Shown here: positions 3,146 through 42,638 of the stretch, piece by piece | How positions within the stretch are numbered: position 1 is the first letter of the stretch | How the letters are laid out: the number at the start of each line of letters is the position of its first letter | Assembly (NCBI GenBank): GCA_900553755.1 | Contig: USEX01000001.1 | Coordinates: 29,463-93,462, forward strand | DNA: 64,000 nt | Direction: 5' to 3' | From: an uncultured Clostridium sp. | Lineage (GTDB): Bacteria > Bacillota > Clostridia > TANB77 > CAG-508 | Made by a program: the position numbers and the translations under genes | The notes under the pieces: model-generated | Told to the model about the DNA's origin: nothing | Databases searched by the model: none | The model's input: only the letters and a program-made list of their open reading frames with translations

Positions 3146-3146
3146 T

Positions 3147-13652: not shown

Positions 13653-13667
13653 CTCCTTCTTCTAGTT

Positions 13668-17109: not shown

Positions 17110-17154
17110 TTATCTATCACTCCTATCTTGATTTATTTTTATCTTTAACAATTT

Positions 17155-17985: not shown

Positions 17986-18065
17986 ATAAATTCACCTCCT
18001 ATATAAAATTAACTTAAACCAAATAAAGCAAATATCATATCAAGATATTTGCCTTAACTATATTT

Positions 18066-20187: not shown

Positions 20188-20384
20188 CTTATATAGTTTC
20201 CTTTGAGTCTATTTAATACAAGCTTTTGTTTTTTGACTGGGGCATCCATTAACTTTAATATAATATCATCGACTGAATCAGTTGATATACCATCTTCTAA
20301 TAACTTACTTCGTAGATGATTTAATGCATTGATAGTTGTTCCTTTTTCATATCTATCAAATTCAATTACATATTTTTCTTCCAT
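20184..20384 (-). CDS. Hypothetical small protein (66 aa) between T4CP and PcfB-like genes
   Basis: ORF whose stop overlaps the T4CP start (ATGA). Confidence 0.35.
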   Translation of the reverse strand: MEEKYVIEFDRYEKGTTINALNHLRSKLLEDGISTDSVDDIILKLMDAPVKKQKLVLNRLKGNYIR

Positions 20385-20393
20385 CGTTACCTC

Positions 20394-21167
20394 CTATCTA
20401 GATTTATCTTTTTTTGTATTTAACTTGTTTTTATTTTTCTTACCTTTTGATAAATCTTTAGATTTAGAAGATGTTTTTTCTTCTTTTGCTATTTCTTCTC
20501 TTATTTCTTTTAACTCTTTTCTTACTGATTTTTTTACAACCTTAGTATTGCCCTCGTGCTTTTTTAACATTCCTGATGAATTCTTTGACAGATTCTCTTT
20601 GCTGTCTTTTTCTAGGAGGGGGACTTGTTTTTCCTCATTCTGTAATGGTACTAATTCTTGTTTTTCTTTTTCTTTTATTTCTATATCTTTTTGTTCTACG
20701 CCTAATTGTTTATCATTAGGAATATTATTTTTATCTTTTGCTTTTTCCTCTCTAGTCTTTTGAATTTCAGTTCTAATTTGAGCTTCATTGACTGTAGCAA
20801 TTTTAAATCTTTCAACTATTCTATTAATTTTAGAGGCATCTTCTGCTCGTACCATTATATCAACCATTCCATCAAAGTTTTTATTGTGTTTATCAATTAA
20901 AGCAGAATATAAAACACCATACCTTTTTGCCTCTTGCATAAACATTTTTAAATCTTGTTGTTTTAAAGAGAATACTTTTAATTCTTTACCACTCTTAAGC
21001 ATATTTGTTAATCTTGTTTTTCCTTTTGTTTGAGTTTGATTTTTTAAAATTGCAGCAAGTAATGCAACTACTTCTTTTGCTGCTGTTCCCGTTACTCTAA
21101 GACAAACATCTCCTGTTTTTAAAATCATACTTGTCATCTGTTCTGCTGACTCACTTGATATACTCAT
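20394..21167 (-). CDS. PcfB-like (DUF3801-type) conjugal transfer protein with Lys-rich disordered tail
   Basis: The N-terminal ~130 aa (LKTGDVCLRVTGTAAKEVVALL...KRYGVLYSALIDK...DIMVRAEDASKINRIVERF) resemble, from my recollection, the PcfB family found between relaxase and T4CP in Gram-positive plasmids. The C-terminal half is KE-rich. Confidence 0.5.
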   Translation of the reverse strand: MSISSESAEQMTSMILKTGDVCLRVTGTAAKEVVALLAAILKNQTQTKGKTRLTNMLKSGKELKVFSLKQQDLKMFMQEAKRYGVLYSALIDKHNKNFDGMVDIMVRAEDASKINRIVERFKIATVNEAQIRTEIQKTREEKAKDKNNIPNDKQLGVEQKDIEIKEKEKQELVPLQNEEKQVPLLEKDSKENLSKNSSGMLKKHEGNTKVVKKSVRKELKEIREEIAKEEKTSSKSKDLSKGKKNKNKLNTKKDKSR

Positions 21168-22521
21168 CTTTATTTTTCTCCTTTCTACTTTTTTCTTCTT
21201 TATTCTTCTCTTCTAAGTTTTCTTTTATCTTTGGTATTCTGTATTCAATATCTTCTATTAATCTCAACTCCTTCCTTATATTTTCAATTTTAAAATTTAA
21301 TTCAGCTATTTGATTACATATTAACTTTTGCTTTTCTGGAGTGTTTTCTAATTTTCTATATCTCCATAAACTTTCTCTCTCAGATAATATGTTATTTAGT
21401 TCTATATTTATATTTTCTTTATAACTATTCAACTCATCTTTTGTATTTAAATTATTTGCATTTAGAAATTTTGCTTCTTCAGAATATTTGTCCATTATTT
21501 TTATATCTGCTCTAATGCTAGCAGGTAATCTTTTATTTACATTTTTAGTATTAGGAAATACTTTTAAAAGAAAACAATAATGATAATATAAAGCAATGAA
21601 TCCTTTTGCTTTCTTTTTAGATTTTTTATATGTGCCTTTATACTTGTTTGATGTACCTTTTAATTTATACGCTTCTATAAAAGGTATTCTTGTATCATTT
21701 TCTTCAACTATTCTTGTCTTAATTCGTTCTACTGAATAATCTGCACCAAACGCTCTTTCGATTCTAATATTTCTATTGTAATTCTTATGTTTTACACTAA
21801 TCTTTCCGCTTCTAAATATAATTTCATAGTCCATTTTTTTCATTATTGATTTAAAATCTTCAAATGAAAAAGCTTGACCAATTGCAAAATCAATATCTCT
21901 TTTTGTAGTGTTTTTATAATTATTTTCACTTGAATATTTTTTATAAAAATTATCATAATTTATTAGACCTTTCTTACCAATATTCTTATCAATAACTTTT
22001 AAGTCATATTCTTTACAAAGATTATCTGATGTTGCTCTAATGGCAGAATATGTTTTATTATTGTTGTAATATTTCTTTCCATCTTTAAATGATACTGAAT
22101 TGATGACTATATGATTATGATAGTGGTTAGTATTTAAATGAGTTGATACAACACACTCAAATCTGTCAGCAAATAACTCATTACAAAGTTCAATTCCTAT
22201 TTTATGAGCCAACTCAGGAGTTACTTTCTCATTATTTTCAAATGACTGAATTAAATGAAAAGCTAATATTCCATCTTCTTTTTCATATATTTGCTTTGTA
22301 ATTTTCATTTGCTCATAAGCGTCCTCTGCATTGCAATTTATACCGGTAACATATAATTTCTTTTCAGTTTTATAATCAGCTTCAATATAATCTAAAACAT
22401 TATGTAGGTCTTGATAGTTTATTGCACCATAGTTCTTATTATTTGTTTTATTTTCATTACATGCATAATCTAATACATGATCAAGTCTTACCTTAATAGG
22501 TATAATTTTTGTGATAGCCAT
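21151..22521 (-). CDS. Conjugative relaxase, MobA/VirD2-type (PF03432 relaxase/mobilisation nuclease; MOBQ/MOBP-like)
   Basis: The His triad HLNTNHYHNHIVINSV is present and the N-terminal MAITKIIPIK.. is typical. The C-terminal coiled-coil tail is KE-rich. The gene is directly downstream of mobC. Confidence 0.8.
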   Translation of the reverse strand: MAITKIIPIKVRLDHVLDYACNENKTNNKNYGAINYQDLHNVLDYIEADYKTEKKLYVTGINCNAEDAYEQMKITKQIYEKEDGILAFHLIQSFENNEKVTPELAHKIGIELCNELFADRFECVVSTHLNTNHYHNHIVINSVSFKDGKKYYNNNKTYSAIRATSDNLCKEYDLKVIDKNIGKKGLINYDNFYKKYSSENNYKNTTKRDIDFAIGQAFSFEDFKSIMKKMDYEIIFRSGKISVKHKNYNRNIRIERAFGADYSVERIKTRIVEENDTRIPFIEAYKLKGTSNKYKGTYKKSKKKAKGFIALYYHYCFLLKVFPNTKNVNKRLPASIRADIKIMDKYSEEAKFLNANNLNTKDELNSYKENINIELNNILSERESLWRYRKLENTPEKQKLICNQIAELNFKIENIRKELRLIEDIEYRIPKIKENLEEKNKEEKSRKEKNKDEYIK

Positions 22522-22835
22522 TACAAATATTCCTTTTTAACTTTATTCATAAATTCACACCAATTTCTTGCTTCTTTTTCATAATAGCTTTTATCAATTT
22601 CATTCAAATAATTTGCCTTATGTGCAATTTGATTTAAGTTATTTCCTATATGAGTTAATTGAAACATTACATCATAAAATCTATCATCTGGTTTTTCTCT
22701 TATTCTTTTATTTAGTATTAGTCTTCTAATATATTCTGCTTGACTAATCTTAGCTCTAGAAACATCACTTTTTAATTTGGCATATTCTTCATCACTAAGC
22801 ATAATATCTATTCTATTATTTCTGCTCCTAGCCAT
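22521..22835 (-). CDS. mobC: MobC-like ribbon-helix-helix relaxosome accessory protein
   Basis: It is 104 aa with the N-terminal RHH-like segment RIDIMLSDEEYAKLK and the MobC motif IGNNLNQIAHKAN. It is coupled (ATGA) to the relaxase. A paralogous gene is at 63598..63903. Confidence 0.7.
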   Translation of the reverse strand: MARSRNNRIDIMLSDEEYAKLKSDVSRAKISQAEYIRRLILNKRIREKPDDRFYDVMFQLTHIGNNLNQIAHKANYLNEIDKSYYEKEARNWCEFMNKVKKEYL

Positions 22836-22851
22836 AATCTACTCCTTTCAA

Positions 22852-22910
22852 TATGGGGATTGGGGCAACGCCCCATAACTTTAATAAAAATCCCCTGATT
22901 TTTTATTAAA
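22852..22910. other. Candidate oriT: GC-rich hairpin TATGGGGattggggcaacgCCCCATA followed by an AT-rich inverted repeat TTAATAAAAATC/GATTTTTTATTAA
   Basis: These are the only GC-rich palindromes in the 200-bp region immediately upstream of mobC-relaxase. That is the typical position of oriT in MobC/MobA systems. Confidence 0.4.
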
Positions 22911-23035
22911 TCGAATTTCGTGTGAACAAATTCAATGCTTGCTAGGACATATCGAGCCAAGCTCTCTATGTCACTTTTTTTGTAAGCATTATCTTCGATT
23001 GTAATTTTATTTTGCAATAACATATACAATTTTTA

Positions 23036-28378: not shown

Positions 28379-28418
28379 TAATGATATTATATAATCAAAA
28401 TTTTAACAAATGTGCAAA

Positions 28419-31400
28419 TTATCTTTCTCTATTATCTTTGTAGTTTTGACTTTTTTCATCGTCAATATCATTATCTAAAAGTTCATGTTCCTTTTCGTTA
28501 AGATTTAACTTAATATTTAGTTCATCAAGTCTCTTTTGCTTTTCTTGTAACTCTTGCTCTTGTGGAAATTCTTTTTGCACTTCTTTTTCTGCATTTGCTA
28601 GTTGTACTTTTTCATTTTCAAGTTGAGCTTTAGTAGGCTCAATTTGTTCTGATATTTTTTCTAGACAATTATCAATTCTTTGTATATTACCATGAACATC
28701 ATTTCCTAATTCAATATAATAGCTATATTCATTTTTTATCTTTAACTTGAATAATTTACTAAATCTATCATATTCTAATTCTAAATTAAATCCTCGATAG
28801 TTTCCTATATATTCTAAATCTGCATTTTTCTTATTATTACAAGCATCTAGTATTGCTTGTCCTGCTTTTGCTTTTTCATTAAATGTAACATTATTTATTA
28901 CCATAGGACTAAATTCATTTTCATTTATTTTTGTATAATCTTTTAAATGTTTTGTATCATTTTCAAGTGCTACAATTTTATCTTCTAATCTTTTGATTTC
29001 TTTTGGATAATATTTTGCAATTCTATCTTGTAAATCATATTTTTCTCCCATAAAACTTTGCTTTAAAAGTTTTAACTTGGCAACTGCAGTATCTAATTCT
29101 GTTTTCTCCAATATATCTGGATTGCCTGTTGCTAGTGCTTTTATTTCTCCATAAGATAATGCTTTCTCATCAACATCTTCAGCAACTCTAACTGGAGTTT
29201 TAGAAGTCATAATTTGCGAAATGAATTTTTGTTTATTTTCCACCAACTGATAAAGGTATGCATCAAAAGTTCCCTCTGTAACATACGTATATACATCAAT
29301 TTCTTCATTTCTATTTCCTTGTCTAATTCCTCTACCATTTCTTTGAGTTAAATCTGCTGGTCTCCATGGACAATCAAGATGATGTAATGCTATAAGCCTG
29401 TCTTGTACATTTGTTCCTGCTCCCATTTTACTTGTACTACCTATAAGAACTCTTACATCACCATTCCTTACCTTAGAGAATAATTCTTTTTTCTTAACTT
29501 CATTATCAGCCTCATGAATAAACGCTACTTGTTCTCTTGGAATTCCTTTTAATACAAGTTTTCTTCTTATATCGTTATAAACATCTGTAAACTTGTAATT
29601 ACCATTTTCATCTAATAATTCTTCATTTTGTTTTGGTGTTGATAAATCACAAAATACTAATTGAGTTGACTTGTTTTCTTTTGTGTTATTCCAAATATCA
29701 TAAACATTATTTATACATGTATTTACTTTACTATATGGATCATCCTCTAACATATCATTCATTAGTCTTTGATCCAATGCTAGTTTTCTCCCCTCATTAG
29801 TTATTTTTAACATATTATCTTTTGCTGCATCAACCATACCATTTCTTATTCTTTCAGCTCTATTTCCAAGTTCTTCAACCATATCCTTTTGTATTGCACT
29901 AGGTTTAGTAACAATATTTTTAAAGTTAGCCTTTGGAACAGGAAGATTTAAAGTCTCGGCTGTTTGTATATCTGCTATTTCTTTGAATAAATTCATAAGC
30001 TCTGGTAAATTATGAAATTTTGCGAATCTAGTTTTTGCTCTGTAACCTGTACCCTCTGGAGACAATTCAATTGCTGTAACTGTCTCTCCAAATGTACTAG
30101 CCCAGGAATCAAAAAAATCCAGTCCCATTTTTTCGAGTCCATTGTATTGCAAATACCTTTGCATTGTATAAAGCTCTACCATGGAATTGCTGACAGGTGT
30201 TCCTGTTGCAAAAACAGTTCCCTTTCCTCCTGTTAACTCATCAAGGTATCTACATTTCATGTATAAATCCGAACTTTTCTGAGCTTCTGTTTGTGCTATT
30301 CCTCCAACATTTCTCATTTTCGTATATAAAAAAAGGTTTTTAAAATTATGTGCTTCATCTACAAATAACTTATCAACTCCTAATTGTTCAAAAGTTACAA
30401 CATCATCTTTGCCATCTTGATTATTTAATTTTTCAAGTTTGCTTTCTAATCCTTTTCTTGTTTTTTCTAGTTGCTTAATTGTAAAATTTTCTCCACGATT
30501 TCTTTTAACTTCGTCAATACCATTTAATACGTCATTGATTTGTTTTTCTAACATTTCTTTTTGCCTTTCGACAGACATAGGTATTTTTTCGAATTGTGAA
30601 TGTCCAATGACAACTGCATCGTAATCTCCTGTTGCTATACGACTACAGAATTTTTTTCTATTAGCAGTTTGAAAATCTTTTTTAGTAGCGACAAGTATGT
30701 TTGCAGACGGATATAATTGAAGAAACTCTGAAGCAAATTGTTCAATTATGTGATTAGGAACTACAAATAAGGATTTGTTACATAAACCAAGTCTCTTGCT
30801 TTCCATAGCTGCTGCAACCATCTCAAATGTTTTTCCAGCTCCAACTTCATGTGCAAGTAATGTGTTACCTCCATATAAAATATGTGCTATGGCATTTACT
30901 TGATGTTTTCTTAATTTTATTTCTGGATTCATTCCAACAAAATTCAAATTACTACCATCATACTCTCTTGGTCTAATACTATTAAACTTTTCATTATAAA
31001 TCTTGGTGAGTTGTTCCCTTCTATTTGTGTCTTTCCATACCCATTCTTCAAACGCTGCTTTAATTTGTTCTTGCTTTGATTGAGCAATAGCTGTTTCTTT
31101 TTTGTTTAATACTCTTGTTTTTCTTCCTTCTTCGTCAATTATGGTATCAAAAATCTTTACATCCTTTAAATTTAAAGTAGTTTCAATTATTTTGTACGCA
31201 TTAATTCTATCAGTACCATAAGTTTTATATGCCTTTACATTACTTCTATCTCGACTTTTGTTTTCTATGTACCATTCTGAATTGTACTTTGAATATCTTA
31301 CTTTGATATCCCAGGTAGCATATACTGGTGTATCTAATAATTCAAACATAAATTGTCTTATGATTTCCTCAGGTATCCATGTAGCACCTAGCTTTATTCC

Positions 31401-34400
31401 TATTTCATTTGCTTGAATGTCTTTTGGCATAACCTTTTTCAAACTATCTACATTGATTTGAAATTCTGGATGTGTCAAAGCAAATTCTTCAGCTATTTTC
31501 AATTTTTCTCTTACATTTCCTGATAAATATTCATCGGAAGTATAGAATGTACCTCTATGAAGCGGGTCTTCATAAATTACTCCTTCAAGTTCTTTTATTA
31601 TTGTTTCTTTATCTTTATTAGTTAATTCAGACATATAATCTAAATCAACTCTTGCTTTTTCTGACATTGAAACAATTAATGCTTCATCGCTTGTCGAAAC
31701 CTCTTTAATTTCCTTATACGGCTTAATTGTTCTTTTTGTAAACATATCTGCTTTTCGTACAAATTTTCCTTCGCCATCTAACACTTCTAAAGAACATAAA
31801 AGAAAATAACTACTATCCTCAGAAAAGGCTAAATTATTTCCTCTACTATTAATTAGTCCGTATTGTTTTACAAAATTATCATACAATCTATTTAATCTTA
31901 ATTGCTCTTGTTTTATATTTTCTTCAGGATAATCCTCTGTCTGCATATCTATTAGTGTTCTAACGCAATCTCGAAGTTCTATCATTCCTTTTATTCTATT
32001 TACAGAAGTAACAGGGAGTTCTTGTAAATACATTTTACTATTTTCTCTAAAATATATATTTCCATCTTTTATTGTATAAGAAAAATTTCTAACACTTGGA
32101 TCAGCATTAATAAATTTTTCATCTTCTTCTATATCATCTATTTCATATTCACTAATTTCAGCATGAATATTAGTTATTGCATAGTCTAATTGATTTTCAA
32201 GAGGTATATCATTATTGGGAATACATGTTGAATCTAATCCATATTGTGTAGTTTTCATTTCCATTGTTCCTAAAACCATTTCAGGGTTATCTACAAAGTA
32301 CTTATTCATTTTTATTCCATTATCATTAGTATCAAGATAAACCCAATCTGGTTCATTATTTGTCATATTTTCTCTTTTTTGTAGAAATAAAATGTCAGAT
32401 GTTACCTCCGTACCTGCATTCTTAGAAAATGTGTTGTTGGGTAATCTAATTGCACCAAGCAAATCAGCTCTTTGTGCTATATATCTTCTTACAGTGGGAT
32501 TTTCCTTATCCATTGTTCCTTTTGAAGTTATAAATGCAATTATTCCTCCAGGTCTTACCTTATCTAAAGTTTTTCCAAAGAAATAATCATGAATTAAAAA
32601 ATTGTTTTTGTCGTATTTTTTGTCATGTATTTTAAAATCTCCGAACGGAACATTGCCAACAGCAACATCAAAGAAACTATCTGGCAAATCAACTTTTTCA
32701 TAACCATTAATAGTAATATTTGATTTTTGATATAATTGTCTAGCAATTCTTCCTGATATAGGATCTACTTCTATTCCATACAATTTACTTTCATTCATAG
32801 AATCAGGAATACTACCTAAGAAGTTTCCTGTACCACAACTAGGCTCTAGTATATTAGCATTCTTTACTCCCATATTTTCAAGTGCTTTATATATAGATTT
32901 AATTACTATTGGTGGTGTATAAAAAGCTGTCAATGTTGACGCTCTCGCATTTTTATATTCTTCTTCAGAAAGTAAATCCTTTAAAACTTTATATTCATTT
33001 GACCAGTTTGAGTCTTTATCATCAAATGCTTTTGCAAGTCCACCCCATCCAACATATTTAGATAAAATTTCTTGTTCTTCTTTAGTTGCTAGTCTATTTT
33101 CATCTTCGCATTTTTTTAGAACTTTTATAGCCTCAATATTATTTGAAAATCTTTCTCTTGGTGTACCCACTCCTAAATTATCATCAGTTATTTTGTAATT
33201 TATTCTGTCTATATTAGATATTTCTGGTGAACTATTATAAGTTTCTCTTTTATTTTCTTTTGTATCAAATTTTGGCTCTATAATATTTGATTTTTTTATT
33301 TCATCAATTATTTCATTAAAATCTTGTTGCAATTCCTCATTATTGTCTTCTGCACTTTTAACTTGTTCTAGATAATCTATAAGTTCTTCTTTTCCATCTA
33401 AATCTTCTTTTACTTGTTCAATTGTATTTTCTTCTCTATCAAAGATATCGTACTTATTTTCTAAATCAAGTAGTTTTTCATCTAAAGATTTATTTTCAAT
33501 AGTTGTCTCTTTTTCTTCTGCCTTTTCTCTTGTCTTATATAAGTGTGAGTTCGAAGGATTTTCTTTTATTATTTTTTCAAATTCTTCAATTGACATTTCT
33601 CTGCCTAGTAATGGAAATTTCAAATCATAAAGTTGAACATTCATTACACCAATATTAGATATTTCATAGCTATCACTGCCAATATAAACTATATCTCCTA
33701 GATGGTAATCTAAAACTTTTTCAACTGGTATTTCTTTAATACTTTCTATTTTTTCTTTAGCATCATTATCTAACCATGCAAGGTATTCATCAAATTCTTT
33801 AGAATTTAAGTATCTGTCTGCTAAAATTAACTCTTTTAATCTTTTTTCTACATAGTTCCATGTCAATAATTTTTCTGGTCTATCATCTTTAAATCCTTTA
33901 TATAATAAAATTCCCTTACTATCATGTTGTTGTCCAAAATCTGCGTAACTATATGCTGCACTTGAGCCACCAATACCATATTCATGTTTAAGAAAATCAA
34001 TATTTTCTTTTGCTGACATGCTTGAAGTCATTTGTCTAAATATTCTAAATTTTCCCTTTGCAAATCCACTACCATTTTGCAAAGTTCTGTCTATCATTTC
34101 TTGTGTGAATTCAAAAATAGCAGGTATATCATTATTTGATATATCTGCTATTTTTTGCTTTTGTTCTTCTTCTGATATTAAATTTAATTGTAGATTAGTT
34201 CCTGAATTGTTATCTCCTCTGCCATATTCCTTAAATTGTTCATTATCTGAACCCACTTCATTTGGTCTTGTGCTTTCATTTCTTCTGTTATATTCGCTTT
34301 TTTCATTAAATCTTTCATTATTGTTTCTATTCGTTCTGTCGCCGATTTTTGAATTTCTACTAGATGACTTGTAAGTTCGTTTTTCATTAGTAAAGCCATA

Positions 34401-35369
34401 TATAAACCTTTTTTCTGTTCCTTCAGATAATTTAACCTCATGTGATAATATTTGCCCTGAACTTGATTCTCGTTTGTTTCCTTTATCATAAGATTCGGTA
34501 TCTGATAATCTCCTTCTTGTCTGTATGTTAATTCCATAATCAACACTCCTTTCGTTTTCTTTGATTATATTATTATCTAATTTTTCTTTTTCTGCAAATG
34601 TATGATTTTTAATTTTTTCTTGAGTTTGCAATTTTTTAATTGTTTGATGTATTTCTCTTATATTATTTTCTGCAATATCACTTGTTGCTGCTCCTAATCT
34701 TGAAATTGTTTCTAAAGTGTTGAAATCTACTATACCTCTAAAATCATCAATTGAGAAATAATCAAATGGATTTATACCACATCTTTGCATAGTCATATAT
34801 GCTACACTATTTGATAATAATGTTCTAAATCTTGTTTCAATATTAAAGTCATCTAAATCTTCTAAAAAACTATTATCTTTTGCAACTATTAAGTCGCTTA
34901 AATAATCTTGAATATTATCTTCAACAGAATTATAAGAAGCGGATATTATTGCTTCTGCTAAATTTGATTTATTTTCTAATTCTCCAAATCTAGCTTCTAA
35001 TGAATCAATTAAGTCATTATTATATTTATCTTCGATTTTCCATAAGTTTAACTTCGTCCCAGTATAATTGTGTGTATCTGAAACATCAAAAACATGTCTC
35101 AGTCTAGTGTTACCATTTTCTTCACTAAGTAATGCTATTCCTTTTGCACCTTTATTAACCCATCTTTTAACTTTATTATTCCAGGTTTCAATATCAGCAC
35201 AAGCAGTAGCTTCTGGTTTTTGCACAAAAATTAATACTTGCTCTGCAAAATTGTACTTATAATTATTTGAAGCCGTTATCAAAAAAGAAGCCCAATTTTC
35301 TGGACTTCTGCTTATCTCTGAAAGTGTTTCATTATATAAATTTACAATGTTTTGTAATTTCGAAGGCAT
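28419..35369 (-). CDS. Giant (2316 aa) multidomain protein: ArdC_N-like ssDNA-binding domain + N6-adenine DNA methyltransferase + SF2 (SNF2/DEAH) helicase; phage P1 DarB-like antirestriction methylase-helicase
   Basis: The N-terminus VLIFVQKPEATACADIETWNNKVKRWVNKGAKGIALL is the ArdC N-domain pattern. MTase motif I is ILEPSCGTGNFLG and motif IV is DVAVGNVPFGDF. Helicase motif I is LLAHEVGAGKTFEM, motif II is LFVDEAHNFKN and motif VI is LTQRNGRGIRQGN. The real start is probably the second ATG (MPSKLQ) at 35369, with RBS AGGAGG 7 nt upstream. Confidence 0.8.
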   Translation of the reverse strand: MPSKLQNIVNLYNETLSEISRSPENWASFLITASNNYKYNFAEQVLIFVQKPEATACADIETWNNKVKRWVNKGAKGIALLSEENGNTRLRHVFDVSDTHNYTGTKLNLWKIEDKYNNDLIDSLEARFGELENKSNLAEAIISASYNSVEDNIQDYLSDLIVAKDNSFLEDLDDFNIETRFRTLLSNSVAYMTMQRCGINPFDYFSIDDFRGIVDFNTLETISRLGAATSDIAENNIREIHQTIKKLQTQEKIKNHTFAEKEKLDNNIIKENERSVDYGINIQTRRRLSDTESYDKGNKRESSSGQILSHEVKLSEGTEKRFIYGFTNEKRTYKSSSRNSKIGDRTNRNNNERFNEKSEYNRRNESTRPNEVGSDNEQFKEYGRGDNNSGTNLQLNLISEEEQKQKIADISNNDIPAIFEFTQEMIDRTLQNGSGFAKGKFRIFRQMTSSMSAKENIDFLKHEYGIGGSSAAYSYADFGQQHDSKGILLYKGFKDDRPEKLLTWNYVEKRLKELILADRYLNSKEFDEYLAWLDNDAKEKIESIKEIPVEKVLDYHLGDIVYIGSDSYEISNIGVMNVQLYDLKFPLLGREMSIEEFEKIIKENPSNSHLYKTREKAEEKETTIENKSLDEKLLDLENKYDIFDREENTIEQVKEDLDGKEELIDYLEQVKSAEDNNEELQQDFNEIIDEIKKSNIIEPKFDTKENKRETYNSSPEISNIDRINYKITDDNLGVGTPRERFSNNIEAIKVLKKCEDENRLATKEEQEILSKYVGWGGLAKAFDDKDSNWSNEYKVLKDLLSEEEYKNARASTLTAFYTPPIVIKSIYKALENMGVKNANILEPSCGTGNFLGSIPDSMNESKLYGIEVDPISGRIARQLYQKSNITINGYEKVDLPDSFFDVAVGNVPFGDFKIHDKKYDKNNFLIHDYFFGKTLDKVRPGGIIAFITSKGTMDKENPTVRRYIAQRADLLGAIRLPNNTFSKNAGTEVTSDILFLQKRENMTNNEPDWVYLDTNDNGIKMNKYFVDNPEMVLGTMEMKTTQYGLDSTCIPNNDIPLENQLDYAITNIHAEISEYEIDDIEEDEKFINADPSVRNFSYTIKDGNIYFRENSKMYLQELPVTSVNRIKGMIELRDCVRTLIDMQTEDYPEENIKQEQLRLNRLYDNFVKQYGLINSRGNNLAFSEDSSYFLLCSLEVLDGEGKFVRKADMFTKRTIKPYKEIKEVSTSDEALIVSMSEKARVDLDYMSELTNKDKETIIKELEGVIYEDPLHRGTFYTSDEYLSGNVREKLKIAEEFALTHPEFQINVDSLKKVMPKDIQANEIGIKLGATWIPEEIIRQFMFELLDTPVYATWDIKVRYSKYNSEWYIENKSRDRSNVKAYKTYGTDRINAYKIIETTLNLKDVKIFDTIIDEEGRKTRVLNKKETAIAQSKQEQIKAAFEEWVWKDTNRREQLTKIYNEKFNSIRPREYDGSNLNFVGMNPEIKLRKHQVNAIAHILYGGNTLLAHEVGAGKTFEMVAAAMESKRLGLCNKSLFVVPNHIIEQFASEFLQLYPSANILVATKKDFQTANRKKFCSRIATGDYDAVVIGHSQFEKIPMSVERQKEMLEKQINDVLNGIDEVKRNRGENFTIKQLEKTRKGLESKLEKLNNQDGKDDVVTFEQLGVDKLFVDEAHNFKNLFLYTKMRNVGGIAQTEAQKSSDLYMKCRYLDELTGGKGTVFATGTPVSNSMVELYTMQRYLQYNGLEKMGLDFFDSWASTFGETVTAIELSPEGTGYRAKTRFAKFHNLPELMNLFKEIADIQTAETLNLPVPKANFKNIVTKPSAIQKDMVEELGNRAERIRNGMVDAAKDNMLKITNEGRKLALDQRLMNDMLEDDPYSKVNTCINNVYDIWNNTKENKSTQLVFCDLSTPKQNEELLDENGNYKFTDVYNDIRRKLVLKGIPREQVAFIHEADNEVKKKELFSKVRNGDVRVLIGSTSKMGAGTNVQDRLIALHHLDCPWRPADLTQRNGRGIRQGNRNEEIDVYTYVTEGTFDAYLYQLVENKQKFISQIMTSKTPVRVAEDVDEKALSYGEIKALATGNPDILEKTELDTAVAKLKLLKQSFMGEKYDLQDRIAKYYPKEIKRLEDKIVALENDTKHLKDYTKINENEFSPMVINNVTFNEKAKAGQAILDACNNKKNADLEYIGNYRGFNLELEYDRFSKLFKLKIKNEYSYYIELGNDVHGNIQRIDNCLEKISEQIEPTKAQLENEKVQLANAEKEVQKEFPQEQELQEKQKRLDELNIKLNLNEKEHELLDNDIDDEKSQNYKDNRER

Positions 35370-35371
35370 TA

Positions 35372-35626
35372 TCATTCCTCCTTTCCTTTATTTCCTGAAA
35401 AAAATTCTATAATCCCATTTTTTATATTTCTTCTTTTATTTGTTTTATAGTTTTCTTCAATAACAACCTTAAAATCCATTATTAAACTTTTCTCAAAAGG
35501 GGAAAAATCTCCAATGGAGTCTAAATCTTGCCATTTTATATTAATCAATTTTTCAGTTGTATTGATGTTATATTTAAATAATTTTTCTAAAGTTTTTGTT
35601 ATATCATTCATCTTATAAACTGCCAT
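35372..35626 (-). CDS. Hypothetical protein (84 aa), translationally coupled upstream of the giant gene
   Basis: Its stop overlaps the giant-gene start. RBS AAGGAGG is upstream. Confidence 0.4.
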   Translation of the reverse strand: MAVYKMNDITKTLEKLFKYNINTTEKLINIKWQDLDSIGDFSPFEKSLIMDFKVVIEENYKTNKRRNIKNGIIEFFSGNKGKEE

Positions 35627-35646
35627 TTAATTTCCTCCTTATTTTA

Positions 35647-35670
35647 AAAGTGGCTATTTTTCAAGCCACT
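35647..35670 (-). terminator. Hairpin (AAGTGGCT...AGCCACTT) between adhesin gene stop and next RBS; weak terminator/attenuator
   Basis: A 7-8-bp stem is followed on the minus strand by a UUUUAAAAU tract. Confidence 0.35.
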
Positions 35671-35675
35671 CTAAT

Positions 35676-38600
35676 TTAATTTTTAAATTTTTTTAATCCC
35701 AAGAAAACTAAAACTGCAAGCAATAAGCTTGATATAATTAAAACCTTAATCCAAACTCCAATATTACTATCATCTCCAGTTTTTGGTGTTTCAATTTTTT
35801 CGTTTTCAAATTCAAAACTGTAAATACAATTTTCGTCTTCACTAATTAAGTTGTCATTAATATATACACCTTTGTCATTAATATCAACTTTTACAACTTG
35901 TTCGGATAAAGAGTATCCTGATGGAGCTTTTATCTCTTTAATGTAATATGTACCATATTTTAATTCTTCAAATAAAGCTGTTCCATCTTCTTTATTAGAT
36001 TTTACTTCTTTTATTAGCATTGTACATTCTGGATCTTCATAAATAGCAAATATAAATTTGTCTTTAATAGTTTCTTTAGTTTCAGAATCTATTTTAACTA
36101 TTTTAATGTTTTTTAATATTGGCATATCTTTCATTTCTATTTTTTGAGTTTCTTTTTCAGTTGTAACTATAAATTTTATTTCTTCCGTAATTTCATAACC
36201 ATAAGGAGCTGTTGTCTCTCTTAAAATATAAGTTTTACCTTCTTCTAATCCTTTTACTTGATGTGGTTCTTTAGTAGAAATCCACTTATCTATTATATTT
36301 CCATCTTCATCAATTACCTCTAATTCAGCACCCTCAAGCTCATTTCCATTTGTTAAATCGGTTTTAGTAATTTCTACTAATTTATCAATCATAATTATTT
36401 TTTGATTATTTTTGTCTGTTGTAACTTTAAATTCTATATCAGATGCTTTTACATAGTTTCCTACTGCTAATTCTTCATGTAATTTGTAGGTTTTATTTTC
36501 TTCTAATCCTGTGACTTTATGAGGTTCTTTTCCAGAAATCCATTCTTCAATTAAATTTCCGTCTTCATCTAATACTTGTAATTTTGCCCCCTCAATTTCT
36601 ATACCAGAAATATCTTCTTTTGAAATTTCTACTATTTTATCTATCATTGTTACCTTCTGTATCTCTTTTGTATTTTCTATTGTAAATTTTACGTCTGAAG
36701 ATATCACATAATTCTTTGGTGCTATTTCTTCTTTTAGTATATATTCTTTTCCTATTACAAGACCTTCAATTTTATGTGTATTTTCTGATGAAGTCCAAGT
36801 ATCTATAACATTATTGTCACTATCTAATATTGTAAGCTTAGCTCCTACAAGTTCTCCATTTCCTGTGATATCAGTCTTAGAAAATTCTACAATAGTAGTA
36901 TCATTAGAAATATTTAAATCCTCAGTATATACTTTTGTAGTTAGGTCTTTTTGCTCGAATATTATTTCATATTTTTTATCATTTAACACAAGACCATCTA
37001 AAGTCTTTACTTCTACAATCTCATATTTTCCCATTGGGAGATTAGTAATTGTTAATTTTCCATCTTTTGTTAGTTTGTATTTATTTATTTCTTGACCTTT
37101 ATTATAGATTATACTGCCATCTGCTTTATCTAAAATGTCTTCTTTAGATAATAGTTTAAATTCGATACCAGATAAGTCTGATATATCAATTAAAGAAGTA
37201 TCTGCATCTTCTCTTAATGCAATAGTTTTATTTAGTTTTATTGTTCCCGTTGGCTGTTTATTTGCTATTACAACTTCTTTTATAAAATCTCCATCTGTAT
37301 CAGTGTCGTAATCCTTTACATTTTTTATATCAAATATTACTGCACTATCTAATTGCAAAAAACCATCTGGAACTTTTATTTCTTTTATTTCATAACTACC
37401 AACAGGTAATTTTAAAGGTGTTGTAACTTCTGCACAATTATCATTTTTGCTATTATACGAATTAGTAGGAACTACAATATTGTCGGCATTAGTTGTAAAA
37501 GATGTATATGTTGTATTTCCAACTTTTTGAGATATAGTTTCACCCTTTTTAAATAATATCTTTTTTGTTGCTCTATCATATATATCCTTAGTAGCTTTTA
37601 TTTCAAAAGTTGTTGAATTTAATGTTACATTTTTTTCAGTATTTTTGTCTTTTTTCACAAGTTTAATATATGTTTCTAATTGTTCATTGTTTACTACTAA
37701 ATGCTTTGTTTTCTTAGCAATTTCGTTTATTTCTGTTTCATCATCTGTAATGCTGAATGTAAAATCAACTGCTGATTCATAATCTGTTGGTGTTTTTGTT
37801 TCTTTTACAACAAATTTACCATAAGGCAACTTATTTTGAGTATAGGCGTTTCCATCACTATCAGTTTTAATTACTTCGTATGTTGGTGCTATTGCTTGAG
37901 CTTCTGTGACTCTCTTAATATCAACTCCTACTTTGTTTCCATATTCATCAATTCCATTCCATACTTCAGCATAAGTATAGCCTTGTTGATATGCTTTCTC
38001 TACTGCTGAGTTTAATTTAATTGTAAATTCTGCTCCTTCTAGTCCAGGAGTTTCTCCTGAATTTTCTTTTATACCAGATTTAAAAATGTGAACTCCCATT
38101 TCTTTGACTTTTTCTAAACTTGTTATAGTATTGTAAATTACTTTTGTATATTGGTCTTTATATGTTAAATTAACCTCATATTCTTTTGAATCTAGCATAT
38201 ATCCTAAAGGTGCTGTTTCCTCTTTAACCATATATTTTCCTAATGGTAAGTTTGTTATATCTTCAGTTGTTCCTTTTTCATTTATGGTTCTAGTTGCAAC
38301 TAAATCTCCAGCTGAAAAGAATTTTTTAGTTTTGGCTTTATTATATATATCTTCTTTTGCATATATTTTATATACTGCTCCATTAAATGAAGCATCTCCT
38401 TGTGGTATAGAACCTGTTTTTGAATCCTTTTTTACAATAGTTATTGTTGCTGTAGGTTCCTCATCAACAATGTCTTTTACATCTAAATATACAATCTTTG
38501 TTGTTTGGTCTTTATATTTTAAATTTGCATCGTATTCTTTTTCATTTAATAGATATCCTTCTGGTGCACTTGTTTCTTTTACATAGTAATGTCCTAAATG

Positions 38601-39931
38601 TAAGTTTGAAAATCTGACCATTCCTTCATCATCAGTAACGGCTTTTTTTACTAATTCTCCTTTTTTATACCATGTAATTGTACCTGCAACATTTTTTATA
38701 TCTTCTTTTGCATATAAAGATATTTCTGCTCCTTTTAGTTTGTCACTTATATTATTTGTTTTATATACTTTTATTTCTCCAATAGGTTCTTCATTGACTA
38801 TTGCTTTAGTAGCTATTTGATTTACTTTTACTTCAACATCATAAGAGTTTGTATCTATAAGATAACCATAAGGAACAGATATTTCTTTTATTGTATATGT
38901 TCCTTTTTTTAATTTTTCAATAGTTATTTTACCATTTGTAACAGTTACATCTTTATCATAATCATTTGGACCTCTAACATTAAATACTGCTCCATTTATT
39001 AAATCTCCGTTAGTATTTAATTTTTGTAGTTCTACTTTTCCAAATGATTCAATATTTAATGAAAGATTTAATGTTACTGGATCATTATAATTCATACAAT
39101 AAAATTGATTTTGAGCACCTGATGGAAACTCAAAATATACCATTGTGTCATTATCTTCTGTTCCATTCTTTAACATACCCCATTCTAAAAATGTACTGTC
39201 AGATACTCTATAGTTTTGTAAATCAGTATTTTCATCTACTGAAATAGTCATAGAATTACTTCCATTTTGATGAATAAATCTTATTCCATCTTTTGTATTA
39301 TCTATTGTTCCATATTCTGCAAGAACACCATTTAAATCCGTTATAGTTTTACTTTCTCCAGCTTGAATTGTAATTGTTGTACCATTAAAGCTAGGTCTTG
39401 TTTCGATACTAGCAATTTCACTATTTATTCTGTTTTTAAAATCTACATAGCCTTGTTGCTCGTCTGCTTTAATAAATGTAGCTGTACTTTGTCCAAGTGT
39501 TTCCCAAATGAATTGTTGAGTAAATACATAATCCCATTTAACCCATTTCATATCACTTGCTAAAATTCCACCATCTACGGTATAGCCTCCATTATTTTTA
39601 TACCACCCTAAATAAGCTATTTTACATGCTTTTCTTATGTTTGAATCAGTAGGTGTGTAATAAATTCCATTGTATGATGTACCAGTTTTGAAATCTACTC
39701 CATGTTCTGCACAAAATACTGTTCTTTTTTCTCCTGTTTTTAAATTATTCAATCTTCTAATTAAAACTCCTGTTGTTCCACTAACATTATCTGTTGTTTC
39801 CATTCCTGAAGCATATTGAGCTCCAGACCATGTTCCACTTCCTGATGCAGCAAAAACTGGTTGAACAACATTAAATAATGTAAAGAATAACATTATAGTT
39901 GAAATAATTTTATTTAATTTCTTTTTTTTCA
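35676..39931 (-). CDS. Sortase-anchored surface adhesin (1418 aa): signal peptide, many Cna-B/prealbumin-like repeat domains, C-terminal PKTG sorting signal + TM + basic tail
   Basis: The real start is MKKKKLNKIISTIMLFFTLF at 39931, with RBS GGAGGT 6 nt upstream; the tracked ORF has 14 extra codons. Repeated motifs of Cna-B stalk domains are present (GxYxIKExxAPxGY, YEIKEIKVPDGF). The C-terminus is ETPKTGDDSNIGVWIKVLIISSLLLAVLVFLGLKKFKN. Confidence 0.8.
36120..36893. repeat. Three diverged tandem ~255-bp (85-aa) repeats inside the adhesin gene
   Basis: The protein repeats are ...DITGNGELVGAKLTILDSDNNVIDTWTSSENTHKIEGL..., ...DISGIEIEGAKLQVLDEDGNLIEEWISGKEPHKVTGL... and ...DLTNGNELEGAELEVIDEDGNIIDKWISTKEPHQVKGL.... 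Confidence 0.7.
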
Positions 39932-40002
39932 TTTTTACCTCCATCTTGAAACAAAAAAAGAACAAGCATTTCACTTGTTCTCAAAGTCTCATATATATTA
40001 TT

Positions 40003-40713
40003 TTAATTATAGTAAAGGTTTATAGTCCATTTTCCACAATAAGGACAGCTCCAATCTTCGTATCCATAAGGGCAATTTTTATGATAAGATTCATCGTCTA
40101 TCTCAAAATTCTCCCACTTATCTCCCCATATTTTTATAATTGAATTATAATAAGCAACTGCTTCTGACTCATTATTGAACCACTTTCCAGAATTTCCCGT
40201 TTCAACTTTATGATTATTTCCACTACACTTTGGAGTTTCGTTTTCTTGCTCTATTGTTTCAATTTTCGTTTGCTCCTGCTTTTGTTTTGGCATTTCTTGT
40301 TTTTGTGTATCTTTCGGAATTGTTGTGGTAATAATAGATTCTTCTTTTTCAGATGATAAATTTTCTAGATTCTTATCTTGTGTTTCCTTAATTGTCTGCT
40401 TTGGTGTTACTATTTCCTCTTTTTTAGGTTCTGAAATAGTTATAATTTTTATTTCTTCTCTATCATTCTCATTGTCTATCTTTTCTTGTAAAATATTGTT
40501 TTCATCAATAATTGCATCATTGATTATCTCACTATTTTCAACTAATTCAACATTTTTTGTTTGTCCATCACAAATTATATTCTCATTTGAAACTTCTTGC
40601 ATATAATTTTCTTGATTAGGCTTTTCAAAGCAATTTAGCCCTATTCCAGTCAAAATCATTGTAAAAATTAATCCTGAAGATATTATGATATATTTTAAAT
40701 TCATAAAAATCAC
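40003..40713 (-). CDS. Secreted/membrane-anchored protein with Glu/Lys-rich linker and Cys-rich C-terminal domain
   Basis: It has an N-terminal signal/TM segment IISSGLIFTMILTGIGLNC and a C-terminal segment CSGNNHK...CPYGYEDWSCPYCGKW. Confidence 0.4.
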   Translation of the reverse strand: MIFMNLKYIIISSGLIFTMILTGIGLNCFEKPNQENYMQEVSNENIICDGQTKNVELVENSEIINDAIIDENNILQEKIDNENDREEIKIITISEPKKEEIVTPKQTIKETQDKNLENLSSEKEESIITTTIPKDTQKQEMPKQKQEQTKIETIEQENETPKCSGNNHKVETGNSGKWFNNESEAVAYYNSIIKIWGDKWENFEIDDESYHKNCPYGYEDWSCPYCGKWTINLYYN

Positions 40714-40909
40714 TCTCCTTCTAATTTCATTTTACTTTGATTCAATGAACCAGACAAATGTGTAAATTATAAAAACATTATTTTACCACCTCGCTTTTAT
40801 TTATTATATATTTTAATTATTATATTACTTTTCAGATAGTATAGATAGTTATATTAAAGGGGATTGTAAGGGGGAACTCTTGGAAAAAGTACACACACTT
40901 GTTACATAA

Positions 40910-41860
40910 CTATCTTTCCAAAGCTCTTTTTTTGGCTCTTTCTCTCTGATTATGTTCTTGTACACACATAAATATAAAGTCTTCTTTTTCCTGATTAGTT
41001 TTTATATTTTTGGGAAACTCAGCTTCAAATCTATCTGCATTAAATTTCAACTTTTCAATTTGATTTGGCTTTTCTTGACTCATTAATTCTTCAATTTTAT
41101 CAGCGTCCAATTTTCCTTCTTGTTCTAGTTTTTTCATGTGTATTGCTTGTGCTAAGCTTGGAGTAATATCAGAAAATTGCATAACATCTAATAATACATA
41201 TTGATTATCTTCACTTAGATAGGATATTTCAACGGCAGGTCTAAATGCTATTTTCTTTTCATCAACCATGTCTAAAATTTCTGGTATCAGTTCAGTTAGT
41301 CTTATGTATCTTCTAATTTGCTCTCTGCTTTCTCCTGATTCTTCAGCTATCCTTTCTCTTGAAGTCATATTATCAGACTTCTGCACCACTGGTGCCGAAG
41401 TTAAATCTTTTCTTTCTCCTTGTCTTTTTATTGCTTCTAATTTCATTTTGTAAGCAAAAGCCTTTTCACTTGGCAATACTTCTTCTCTTTGATTTTCATT
41501 ACTATCTACCATTAGAATTGTAGCTTCTTCATCTGTTAAGTCCTTAATAATAGCAAGTATATCTTCTTTTCCTGCTAATTCACTTGCTCTTTTTCTTCTA
41601 TGACCTGAAATCATTTCATATCTTCCATTTTCCTTTTTTCGAACTATAACTGGTTGTGAAACACCATATTCTTTAATGCTTTCGCTTAATTCTTGCATTT
41701 TTTCGTTATCAACAACTTTATAGGGATGGTTAGGAAAATCATCTATTTCACTTAATGGTATTGGTATAACATATTCTTCTGCATCTCTTTCAGTTTGTGT
41801 TGTAAACAAATCATCTAGCGATATCTTTGGTAATTCCATTCTTTTGTCTTTGTCTGTCAT
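40910..41860 (-). CDS. parB: ParB/Spo0J-family partition protein
   Basis: The ParB N-domain box is VIVRKKENGRYEMISGHRRKRASELAG. The likely start is MTDKDK at 41860, with RBS AGGAGGTG upstream. Confidence 0.8.
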   Translation of the reverse strand: MTDKDKRMELPKISLDDLFTTQTERDAEEYVIPIPLSEIDDFPNHPYKVVDNEKMQELSESIKEYGVSQPVIVRKKENGRYEMISGHRRKRASELAGKEDILAIIKDLTDEEATILMVDSNENQREEVLPSEKAFAYKMKLEAIKRQGERKDLTSAPVVQKSDNMTSRERIAEESGESREQIRRYIRLTELIPEILDMVDEKKIAFRPAVEISYLSEDNQYVLLDVMQFSDITPSLAQAIHMKKLEQEGKLDADKIEELMSQEKPNQIEKLKFNADRFEAEFPKNIKTNQEKEDFIFMCVQEHNQRERAKKRALER

Positions 41861-42638
41861 CTGCCAACACCTCCTTTGCAAATTCTTCATAAGCAGTTGC
41901 TACTTTACTATTCTTGTCATATTTAAATATACTTTTACCTCTTGATGTAGATTCTGCCGTTTTAACTGCAAGTGGTATTTGAGAGTTATATAATTTTATT
42001 GCCTTTCCATAAGTTTCTTTTAAATCTTGTATGGTTTCTTTTGATAAATTTGTTCTACTATTAACTAATGTAAGCAGAATTCCTCCAACTTCTAAACCTG
42101 GATTTATTGTTCTTTTAACTCTTGAAACAGTCTTTAACAAGTGTCCCATTCCTTTTGCGGCAAGAAAGTGGTCTTGTACTGGAATAATAACTTTATCACT
42201 ACAAGCTAGAGCATTAATAGTTAGCATTCCAAGAGAAGGCATACAATCAATTAAAATATAATCATAATCTTTTTTTACATCACTCAAAATCGTTCTAATT
42301 GTTATTTCTCTACTCATTGCATTTACGAGCATTGCTTCTGTTGCTGAAAGGTCTAAATCTGAAGGTATTAAGTCTATACCTTCATTATTCTTTAAAATCG
42401 CTTGTCTTGTATCAAGTTGTGAATCATAAATTACTGATTCCATTAGTTGAGCTAATGTAGTTTTTAATTCACTTTCATTATATCCCATATATGTAGTTAA
42501 GTCTCCCTGTGGATCAGCATCTACAACTAAAACTTTTTTGCCTTGATTTTTCAGTGCAACACCTAAGTTAAATGTTGTTGTAGTTTTACCAACTCCACCT
42601 TTTTGATTAGCAATTGCTATAACCTTACAATCAGACAT
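41811..42638 (-). CDS. parA: ParA/Soj-family partition ATPase
   Basis: It has the deviant Walker A KVIAIANQKGGVGKTTTTFNLG and is 275 aa. Confidence 0.85.
   Translation of the reverse strand: MSDCKVIAIANQKGGVGKTTTTFNLGVALKNQGKKVLVVDADPQGDLTTYMGYNESELKTTLAQLMESVIYDSQLDTRQAILKNNEGIDLIPSDLDLSATEAMLVNAMSREITIRTILSDVKKDYDYILIDCMPSLGMLTINALACSDKVIIPVQDHFLAAKGMGHLLKTVSRVKRTINPGLEVGGILLTLVNSRTNLSKETIQDLKETYGKAIKLYNSQIPLAVKTAESTSRGKSIFKYDKNSKVATAYEEFAKEVLADDRQRQKNGITKDIAR

Follow-up and report, generated by a model that had tools for sequence, protein, structure and literature searches.

A DarB-like polyvalent methylase-helicase gene in a predicted conjugative element of an uncultured Clostridia bacterium

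The giant gene and its surroundings

The window (the whole 64,000-nucleotide stretch of DNA that was analysed) contains on its minus strand, at 28419-35369, a gene whose translation, like the entry in the ORF list, is 2316 aa long. It is a single open reading frame that extends on the same strand to a first ATG at 35375 (28419-35375), use of which would give a protein of 2318 aa. The second ATG, at 35369, is the likely translation start, because AGGAGG lies 7 nt 5' of it, at Shine-Dalgarno spacing. A search of public collections found that NCBI/ENA already contains an identical 2316-aa protein, and the coordinates and length reported in a first-pass annotation of this DNA agree with the ORF, with the 35369 start and with the public sequence. 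All of the peptides quoted in that annotation were located in the protein, and VLIFVQKPEATACADIETWNNKVKRWVNKGAKGIALL corresponds to residues 45-81. The giant gene is genuine but unremarkable: it belongs to a very large family of DarB-like "polyvalent" methylase-helicase proteins that has been described before, with homologues in more than 7,500 protein clusters and at least partial matches to the protein in 2,225 plasmid records. A megablast search of window positions 28000-40000 against plasmids and phages returned zero matches, indicating that the element described below is not among the deposited plasmids or phages.

As judged from gene content, the giant gene sits in a chromosomally integrated, Firmicutes-type conjugative element of an uncultured Clostridia bacterium. 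The transfer genes (12006..22835, minus strand) were identified with Pfam and include NikA/MobC, a MobA/VirD2-type relaxase, DUF3801, a VirD4 coupling protein, a VirB2-like protein, PrgI, a VirB4-like ATPase, a sortase and a CHAP hydrolase, with the relaxase, VirD4, VirB4, PrgI and CHAP genes lying 6-16 kb from the giant gene. Upstream of nikA is a candidate oriT (22850..22980, given without a strand), which consists of an inverted repeat and conserved non-coding blocks. Two relatives (L004 and L005) share the blocks TGTCCTAGCAAGCATTGAATTTG and GGGGC..GCCCCAATCCCC, and the apex of the hairpin carries compensatory changes in L004. The giant gene lies 5-12 kb upstream of the candidate oriT, NikA and relaxase and is transcribed towards them, and it would fall within the region of the element that enters first.

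On the other side of the giant gene are further element genes (35676..42638, minus strand), identified with Pfam and NCBIfam as a 1432-aa surface protein with 10 SpaA repeats, a 236-aa ORF, ParB and ParA, and their order is identical in L005. The position of the giant gene is likewise conserved in relatives, between a surface adhesin and the primase-like, NikA and relaxase genes. In one relative, an Apyc1-like anti-defence gene is found directly downstream of the giant gene homologue. A search for the boundaries of the element found no tRNA genes and no convincing flanking direct repeats, and no integrase was found between 5.7 and 44 kb; since neither an integrase nor the element boundaries were found, the element may be inactive. 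A promoter scan of this AT-rich DNA was uninformative, returning matches more rarely than in shuffled sequence.

Between the surface protein and the giant gene is an 84-aa ORF (35372..35626, minus strand), which the junction sequence suggests is tightly coupled to the giant gene. Its TGA overlaps the 35375 ATG and is separated by 2 nt from the 35369 ATG, consistent with the translational coupling already proposed for this small upstream gene. The 84-aa ORF has no match in Pfam, NCBIfam, PADLOC or PHROG. Among the relatives compared, it is conserved only in the closest one, L004, at 86%, and is absent from L001, L003 and L005. We considered it as an obligate partner of the giant protein and rejected this idea, since it is missing upstream of the homologues in those three relatives.

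Methylase and SNF2-type ATPase in the order of DarB

The first-pass annotation had read the protein as a fusion of an ArdC-type N-domain, an N6-adenine methylase and an SF2 helicase, resembling DarB of phage P1. This three-unit reading is essentially right, with the helicase recognized by Pfam and the methylase by PADLOC, PHROG and homology to DarB; SNF2 and Helicase_C exceed the Pfam cut-offs, whereas in Pfam the methylase stays below threshold and ArdC_N is absent. Residues ~704-2306 match the PHROG family "DarB-like antirestriction" (PHROG 10089) with an E-value of 0 and 1640 bits, and in tblastn searches phage proteins annotated as DarB-like match residues ~726-2266 at 29-38% identity.

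The DarB-like module begins with an LPD36-type helical domain (residues 715-812; 32934..33227, minus strand). The LPD36 family was defined as a helical domain that bears a GxGU motif and precedes a methylase (PMC5512222). Here the motif reads VGWGGL (773-778), and G774, W775, G776 and G777 are invariant among homologues. The core of a gamma-class N6-adenine methylase follows (residues 813-1005; 32355..32933, minus strand), assigned from its motifs, PADLOC and homology to DarB. The motifs occur in order, namely the TP motif FYTPP (816-820), motif I EPSCGTGNFLG (842-852) and motif IV GNVPFGD (905-911). PADLOC models for MTase_II (1e-11) and for an orphan MTase (3e-11) match this region, and the Pfam Eco57I score falls under threshold (21.3 bits vs 25.3). 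Against PDB, the methylase matches 2F8L at 1.3e-4 and M.TaqI weakly.

Residues 1006-1483 (30921..32354, minus strand), between the methylase and the helicase, lie inside the PHROG DarB-like match and carry Pfam WH_1 and DUF8437 (PF28553, PF28554) in the precomputed annotation of homologues; they are possibly a target recognition region. Next is an SF2 ATPase of the SWI2/SNF2 type (residues 1484-2068; 29166..30920, minus strand), for which Pfam SNF2-rel_dom, ResIII and Helicase_C all exceed their cut-offs on the giant protein itself. It contains a Walker A motif GAGKTF (1510-1515), a DEAH box (1671-1674, within DEAHN 1671-1675) and motif VI QRNGRGIRQG (2009-2018). The protein ends in a conserved C-terminal domain with an acidic coiled-coil tail (residues 2069-2316; 28422..29165, minus strand), into which the PHROG match extends as far as residue 2306; a Pfam COG6_N match in this region is probably coiled-coil noise.

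The likeness to P1 DarB (AAQ13985) is borne out by the PHROG match and by three collinear BLASTP blocks (1e-25, 6e-23 and 4e-14), of which the latter two cover the ATPase region. Both proteins place the methylase before the SNF2-type ATPase, both carry the methylase motifs YTP, ExSxGTG and VGNVPFG, with NVPF identical, and they are of similar size (2255 aa in DarB vs 2316 aa), neither having a partner nuclease. DarB residues 72-274 align with the methylase core at 31% identity. However, identity between the two proteins is only 24-31%, and their C-terminal thirds do not align. Moreover, the methylase of DarB starts at residue ~70, without an ArdC-N-like or LPD16-like N-terminal region, and DarB reaches the cell by injection from the phage head, in which it is packaged, whereas the giant gene belongs to a conjugative element.

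In an alignment with 16 homologues of 59-85% identity, the motif residues are invariant, and the catalytic motifs of the giant protein are all intact and conserved among homologues. This bears on the idea that the protein counters restriction without methylation, either by coating or occluding incoming DNA or by stripping type I enzymes, its methylase fold serving only to bind DNA or SAM. Occlusion of restriction sites was the original proposal for ArdC, and the mechanism of DarB is itself described as undefined (PMC11109961), which leaves room for such a reading. Yet the SAM-binding and NVPF catalytic motifs are strictly conserved, both family-wide and in P1 DarB, which argues for selection on catalysis, and we consider this explanation quite unlikely.

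The combination of a methylase and an SF2 motor in one chain is also found in type ISP, type I and type III enzymes, and the giant protein gives weak partial matches to models of DrmD, DpdE and PLD-helicases. It might accordingly be a single-polypeptide defence or exclusion enzyme, either R-M-like with an unrecognised nuclease (compare types ISP and IIG) or a component of the DISARM or BREX type. However, the matches to defence models are limited to the generic C lobe of the helicase and lie far under the family cut-offs (for DISARM DrmD, residues ~1927-2062 only, at 37-39 bits where the cut-off is 610), and no DISARM or BREX partner genes were found near the giant gene. The Pfam scan identified no nuclease family in the protein, and Pfam and PADLOC found no nuclease or defence genes among the flanking genes. 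Foldseek searches with AlphaFold2 (AF2) models of the N-terminal 254 residues and of residues 405-625 detected no nuclease fold, and a nuclease hidden in residues 405-625 was rejected on this basis. The order of methylase before helicase is, in addition, that of DarB. Taken with these observations, a defence enzyme seems very improbable.

The sole nucleases in the window belong, as HsdR subunits, to two self-contained type I R-M operons (<1-5714 and 54473-63484). Both operons were rejected as cognate partners, since they lie at a distance of 19-26 kb and each encodes an HsdM and an HsdS of its own. The giant protein is an orphan methylase-motor without a cognate nuclease, as the first-pass annotation had stated.

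The N-terminal region

The first 112 residues (35034..35369, minus strand) form a divergent ArdC-N-like domain, modelled by AF2 as helices followed by a beta-hairpin, and they contain KGAKG and a VFDVSDT motif resembling the "squiggle" of ArdC. The AF2 model of the N-terminal 254 residues has a pLDDT of 94.7, and the order of secondary structure elements in its N-domain appears to agree with the published description of ArdC-N. The assignment of this domain as ArdC-N had been made from the sequence at first reading, and it stands in part: a search with Pfam ArdcN (PF08401) finds no match on the giant protein itself, even at E<=10, while a homologue passes the cut-off and the motifs line up. 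Specifically, 7 of 32 homologues match Pfam ArdcN, one of which exceeds the threshold; this is P0198, which scores 23.7 bits, the cut-off being 22.6, and shares 48% identity (E 6e-70) with the N-domain of the giant protein. A weak hhalign alignment of the N-domain with the ArdC-N family profile of R388 covers 83 collinear columns (P=0.028).

Other searches with this region were negative. Pfam found nothing in isolated residues 1-319; Foldseek of the N-domain model against PDB gave nothing significant and no ArdC structure, although a crystal structure of ArdC has been reported (PMC7213743); neither the N-domain alignment nor the full-length alignment matched any PDB sequence in profile searches, again with no ArdC structure; and against viral structures the sole Foldseek match was an unnamed 107-aa phage protein. 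The ArdC-N assignment is thus only indirectly supported, by the threshold-passing homologue, the weak profile-profile alignment and the motif matches.

ArdC of R388/pSa, which joins PF08401 to a zincin metallopeptidase, and the giant protein appear to share the order of N-terminal helices, KG(E/A)KG strand, beta-hairpin and VF(N/D)xx(Q/D) motif. They also share a tie to conjugative elements and to evasion of type I restriction. In contrast to ArdC, the giant protein has a hairpin that is ~13 residues shorter, no direct Pfam or Foldseek match for its N-domain, and ~2,200 more residues fused to that domain. It also lacks a metallopeptidase domain: Pfam and NCBIfam scans of the whole protein found no peptidase family, zincin-like or other.

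The N-domain is constantly joined to an all-helical bundle (residues 113-252; 34614..35033, minus strand; AF2 model helices 116-253), which is retained by 1,131 homologues of the first 254 aa and has no counterpart among solved or viral structures. A low-complexity, disordered linker rich in N, E, S, K and R follows (residues 253-412; 34134..34613, minus strand) and is poorly conserved in the homologue alignment. Residues 413-620 (33510..34133, minus strand) comprise an LPD16-like alpha+beta domain and then a small SH3-like beta-barrel, as indicated by homologue annotation, PHROG and AF2. LPD16 (PF18830) is a precomputed annotation on homologues, and phrog_38613 matches residues 428-529 at 1e-10. 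The AF2 model of residues 405-625 has a pLDDT of 78, and its best Foldseek matches in PDB are weak SH3-like barrels; the barrel is missing from some homologues. Pfam reported one chance-level match only in the segment ~403-730 (FumaraseC_C, E=7.5).

Iyer et al. (2017; PMC5512222) had already described the architecture of ArdC-N with LPD36, methylase and SNF2 in conjugative elements, together with its distribution and a proposed role for it, and the novelty of the combination was overstated in the first-pass annotation. Like the polyvalent proteins of that study (for example, those of Tn1549-like and Tn5253-like elements), the giant protein has an ArdC-N-type domain at the extreme N terminus, then LPD domains, then LPD36, an adenine methylase and SWI2/SNF2, and its gene is found in a Firmicutes element next to type IV secretion genes. 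It thereby combines, beside such genes, unrelated activities in one chain, which is what defines a polyvalent protein. It differs in that its N-domain has diverged too far to be recognized by the Pfam ArdcN model and that no zincin metallopeptidase, the companion of ArdC-N in ~70% of reported cases, was detected.

Proposed role in establishment and anti-restriction

We propose that the giant gene probably encodes a DarB-like polyvalent protein for establishment and anti-restriction of the conjugative element. Most likely, conjugative elements carry such proteins to protect their own DNA from the restriction systems of a new host. The protein would act on the DNA of its own element in the recipient, after transfer. 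The N-terminal domain may hold it on the transferred single strand or at junctions of single- and double-stranded DNA, and the SNF2 motor could then drive it along the freshly synthesized duplex as the methylase modifies adenines. Another possibility is that the motor displaces or blocks type I enzymes. By either route, the DNA of the element would be spared cutting by the type I restriction enzymes of the host.

The setting of the gene resembles that of the orphan methylases of leading regions (Samuel & Burstein, 2024; PMC11541004). Leading regions carry orphan methylases and darB genes, and their enriched anti-defence and methylase families are all encoded on the T-strand. As in those cases, the giant gene is nuclease-free, lies upstream of the candidate oriT and the relaxase, is transcribed towards them amid small genes without assigned function, and in one relative has an anti-Pycsar-like neighbour. 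Leading-region methylases are, however, mostly small and stand-alone, whereas that of the giant gene is embedded in a motor protein.

The same neighbourhood could point to a helper in DNA processing, during conjugation or replication of the element, that supplies a motor and whose methylase regulates the element epigenetically in the donor instead of countering restriction. The relaxase is a 456-aa MobA/VirD2-type protein in which no helicase domain was detected, the giant gene adjoins and is co-directional with a primase-like DUF3991/Toprim gene and the relaxosome genes, and the N-domain resembles a ssDNA-binding domain that is also present on the RP4 TraC1 primase. However, ATPases of the SWI2/SNF2 type move along duplex DNA and do not separate its strands (PMC5512222). 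Furthermore, the module also occurs in phages that do not conjugate, where it carries an anti-restriction annotation and has a genetic link to that function, and it is absent from many conjugative elements with the same type of relaxase. We therefore regard a helper function as unlikely and prefer a role in anti-restriction.

That a protein of this kind travels with, or acts on, incoming ssDNA was suggested in the first-pass annotation and is a published hypothesis for the whole protein class (PMC5512222). A more specific version is possible, though on balance doubtful: the ArdC-N-like "header" could make the enzyme a substrate of the Gram-positive type IV secretion system, such that it would ride the transferred strand into the recipient and methylate the element processively during complementary-strand synthesis, before any gene of the element is expressed. 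R388 ArdC had to be expressed in the recipient but not in the donor (PMC7213743), which counts against co-transfer as a general rule. Instead of arriving from the donor with the DNA, the giant protein may be produced early in the recipient, from the region that enters first.

Overall, the interpretation reached at first reading is partly supported. As a discovery the giant protein carries little weight, being already in public databases with thousands of close relatives. Its remaining value is that of a clean example of its class, with intact catalytic motifs, no peptidase domain and a clear element context. If the protein were delivered by the type IV secretion system and methylated processively, this would provide the DarB family as a whole with its first defined mechanism, and this element of gut Clostridia could serve as a system in which to test DarB-type methylase-motors against type I restriction, and their delivery together with DNA.

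Methylase-helicase protein of the DarB kind

The giant gene is a single open reading frame on the minus strand, which carries almost all genes of the window (G+C about 27%), and by the ORF list and translation it runs from 35375 to 28419. The stop codon of the preceding 84-aa ORF shares bases with the first ATG of the giant gene, and a second ATG, at 35369, has AGGAGG 7 nt upstream. The 2316-aa protein read from 35369 has an exact counterpart in the public protein data of NCBI and ENA, where it is encoded on a contig of 101.7 kb. Thus, the coordinates (28419-35369) and length in the first-pass annotation are correct, and all of the peptides that it quoted are present in the protein. A hairpin with a T-rich tail (35640-35675; AGTGGCT...AGCCACTTTT) separates the adhesin gene from the 84-aa ORF, so that this ORF and the giant gene may be transcribed as a separate unit.

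Three Pfam families (SNF2-rel_dom, ResIII and Helicase_C) match the helicase, each above its cut-off. For the methylase, the Pfam Eco57I family scored 21.3 bits vs a cut-off of 25.3, and Methyltransf_25 was weaker still; PADLOC identified a type II methylase (1e-11) and an orphan methylase (3e-11) over residues ~808-956, and a search of PDB sequences returned the methylase-like protein 2F8L (1.3e-4) and, weakly, M.TaqI. The PHROG family "DarB-like antirestriction" covers residues 704-2306 (E=0, 1640 bits). When compared directly with P1 DarB by BLASTP, the protein aligned in three collinear blocks, corresponding to the methylase (1e-25, 31% identity), the helicase N lobe (6e-23) and the helicase C lobe (4e-14). 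The two proteins have YTP, ExSxGTG and VGNVPFG motifs in common. Because P1 DarB has VGNVPFG too, NVPF, an unusual variant of motif IV, is the norm of the family and no defect. Across 16 homologues with 59-85% identity, no catalytic residue varies. The GxGU motif of LPD36, defined by Iyer et al. for the LPD36-methylase-SNF2 module (PMC5512222), is present as VGWGGL.

This family is very large, with more than 7,500 clusters at E<=1e-5 as a lower bound; the best 120 of these are 2264-2452 aa long and share one set of precomputed Pfam domains. Matches were found in 2,225 plasmid records, 37 of which match over 80% or more of the query, and in 164 phage records. The feature is real, its annotation largely right, and the protein of a known kind: the proposed fusion of ArdC_N, N6-adenine methyltransferase and SF2 helicase is correct in substance but not new, as "polyvalent proteins" of phages and conjugative elements were described by Iyer et al. 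in 2017 (PMC5512222), with Tn1549-like and Tn5253-like Firmicutes elements named as prototypes.

N-terminal and middle domains

In that study, ArdC-N was located at the N terminus in 93% of the conjugative-element proteins, and was proposed as a "header" for delivery with ssDNA (PMC5512222). The ArdC_N domain claimed for the giant protein was not recovered by direct tests: Pfam ArdcN did not match the protein itself, even at E<=10; PDB sequences searched with a profile of 32 N-domain homologues yielded nothing; and Foldseek with the confident AF2 model of the N terminus (pLDDT 94.7) found no ArdC. Yet ArdcN is matched by 7 of the 32 homologues, one of which scores 23.7 bits vs a cut-off of 22.6 and is 48% identical over the whole N-domain, and a profile of bona fide R388-type ArdC-N sequences aligned collinearly with the N-domain over 83 columns (P=0.028). 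The order of elements (helices, KGAKG strand, hairpin, VFDVSDT) is also that of ArdC-N as published, including its VFNADQ "squiggle". We read this domain as divergent and ArdC-N-like, though not proven. A helical bundle (residues 116-253) always follows it. No zincin peptidase was found in the giant protein by Pfam and NCBIfam scans.

The 254-aa unit of ArdC-N-like domain and bundle also occurs in proteins of ~390 aa with a TnpV domain (PF14198), including homologues P0125, P0129-P0134 and others, and a plasmid hit, H1. Since it is found in these fusions, the unit is a mobile module, not bound to the methylase-helicase.

Residues 253-412 are a low-complexity linker. The model of residues 413-620 (pLDDT 78) contains an LPD16-like alpha+beta unit and a small SH3-like barrel, and Foldseek with this model found no nuclease fold. 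The SH3/Tudor-like beta-barrel (residues 546-620, window 33510-33734; LGDxVYIG...LYD...PLxGRE) is present in some giant-protein homologues and cleanly absent from others.

A conjugative element and its candidate oriT

The giant gene is located in a conjugative element of Firmicutes type. Along the direction of transcription, the genes encode ParA and ParB, a 236-aa ORF, a surface protein (1432 aa, 10 SpaA repeats), the 84-aa ORF and the giant protein, followed by small unknown genes including DUF6664 and DUF1810, DUF2958/DUF3848, DUF3991/Toprim, NikA/MobC, a MobA/VirD2-type relaxase, DUF3801, a VirD4 coupling protein, a VirB2-like protein, PrgI, a VirB4-like ATPase, a sortase and a CHAP hydrolase. 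To the right are rho, a DivIC-type gene and a release-factor gene (prfA/prfB-type), and the element is therefore integrated in the chromosome; a protein in the release factor's cluster carries the name "Clostridia bacterium". Across positions 5700-44700 of the window, the element showed neither an integrase or recombinase nor a tRNA gene or flanking direct repeat. ParA and ParB (40910-42638) adjoin DUF2314, MepB-like and ASCH-NUDIX genes and rho. Just past the CHAP hydrolase, a Y-family polymerase of ImpB/UmuC type and a low-molecular-weight phosphotyrosine phosphatase (7612-9102 and 11196-11663) may be cargo of the element.

This gene order is repeated around giant-protein homologues of 83% and 62% identity, and the cargo between giant gene and relaxase differs among these relatives. 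At locus L004, this stretch holds an S24 peptidase, a MucBP protein and a chloramphenicol acetyltransferase. Directly downstream of the giant gene of L005 (62% identical protein), positions 16971-18170 encode a metallo-beta-lactamase-fold protein with a weak match to anti-Pycsar Apyc1, which suggests that the stretch is a variable anti-defence island.

A plausible candidate oriT lies in the intergenic region ahead of nikA (22850-22980). It contains an inverted repeat, GACATAGAGAGC/GCTCGATATGTC, whose apex changes are compensatory in L004, and two non-coding blocks kept across elements with giant proteins only 62% identical. The giant gene lies 5.4-12.4 kb from this candidate, with transcription running towards it. 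The same arrangement relative to oriT has been reported for anti-defence genes and orphan methylases of leading regions (PMC11541004), and by analogy we infer a leading-region placement for the giant gene.

Restriction systems and the proposed role

No nuclease gene adjoining the giant gene was found. Two complete type I systems do occur in the window, 19-26 kb away. The left-end operon (1-5714; hsdM-hsdS-hsdR, hsdS at 1976-3181) has an HsdR-like ORF cut off by the start of the window; its HsdM is unusually long (855 aa), the N6_Mtase match stopping at residue 479 ahead of a C-terminal extension of ~375 aa. This operon may belong either to the conjugative element, as cargo, or to the chromosome. 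The right locus (54473-63484) comprises hsdM, a partial hsdS (59896-60483), an integrase, a full hsdS (57627-58811) and hsdR. The integrase, a tyrosine recombinase (58823-59824), sits between the two hsdS copies, repeats pair 57599-57727 with 59868-59996 (88% identical) and 58286-58361 with 60520-60595, and the locus looks like a phase-variable hsdS shuffling system. A MobC-like ribbon-helix-helix ORF beside it, at the right edge of the window (63598-63903), hints at a second mobilisable element. Given that both systems come with an HsdM of their own and lie 19-26 kb off, they do not turn the giant protein into an ordinary R-M enzyme, and the claim that it has no cognate nuclease holds.

We consider it likely that the giant protein serves in anti-restriction and in establishment, with the element's own DNA as its target in the recipient. 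Its N-domain would hold it on ssDNA or junctions, the SNF2 motor would track the duplex, and protection would come either from adenine modification by the methylase or from displacement of type I enzymes by the motor. For P1 DarB itself, the mechanism is still called undefined (PMC11109961). Each of three rival readings seems less likely than this role: that the protein is a motor processing DNA for transfer, that it is a cryptic defence enzyme, or that it protects without methylating. [quoted passage not shown] The two type I systems in the window exemplify the kind of barrier against which DarB-type proteins are presumed to act.
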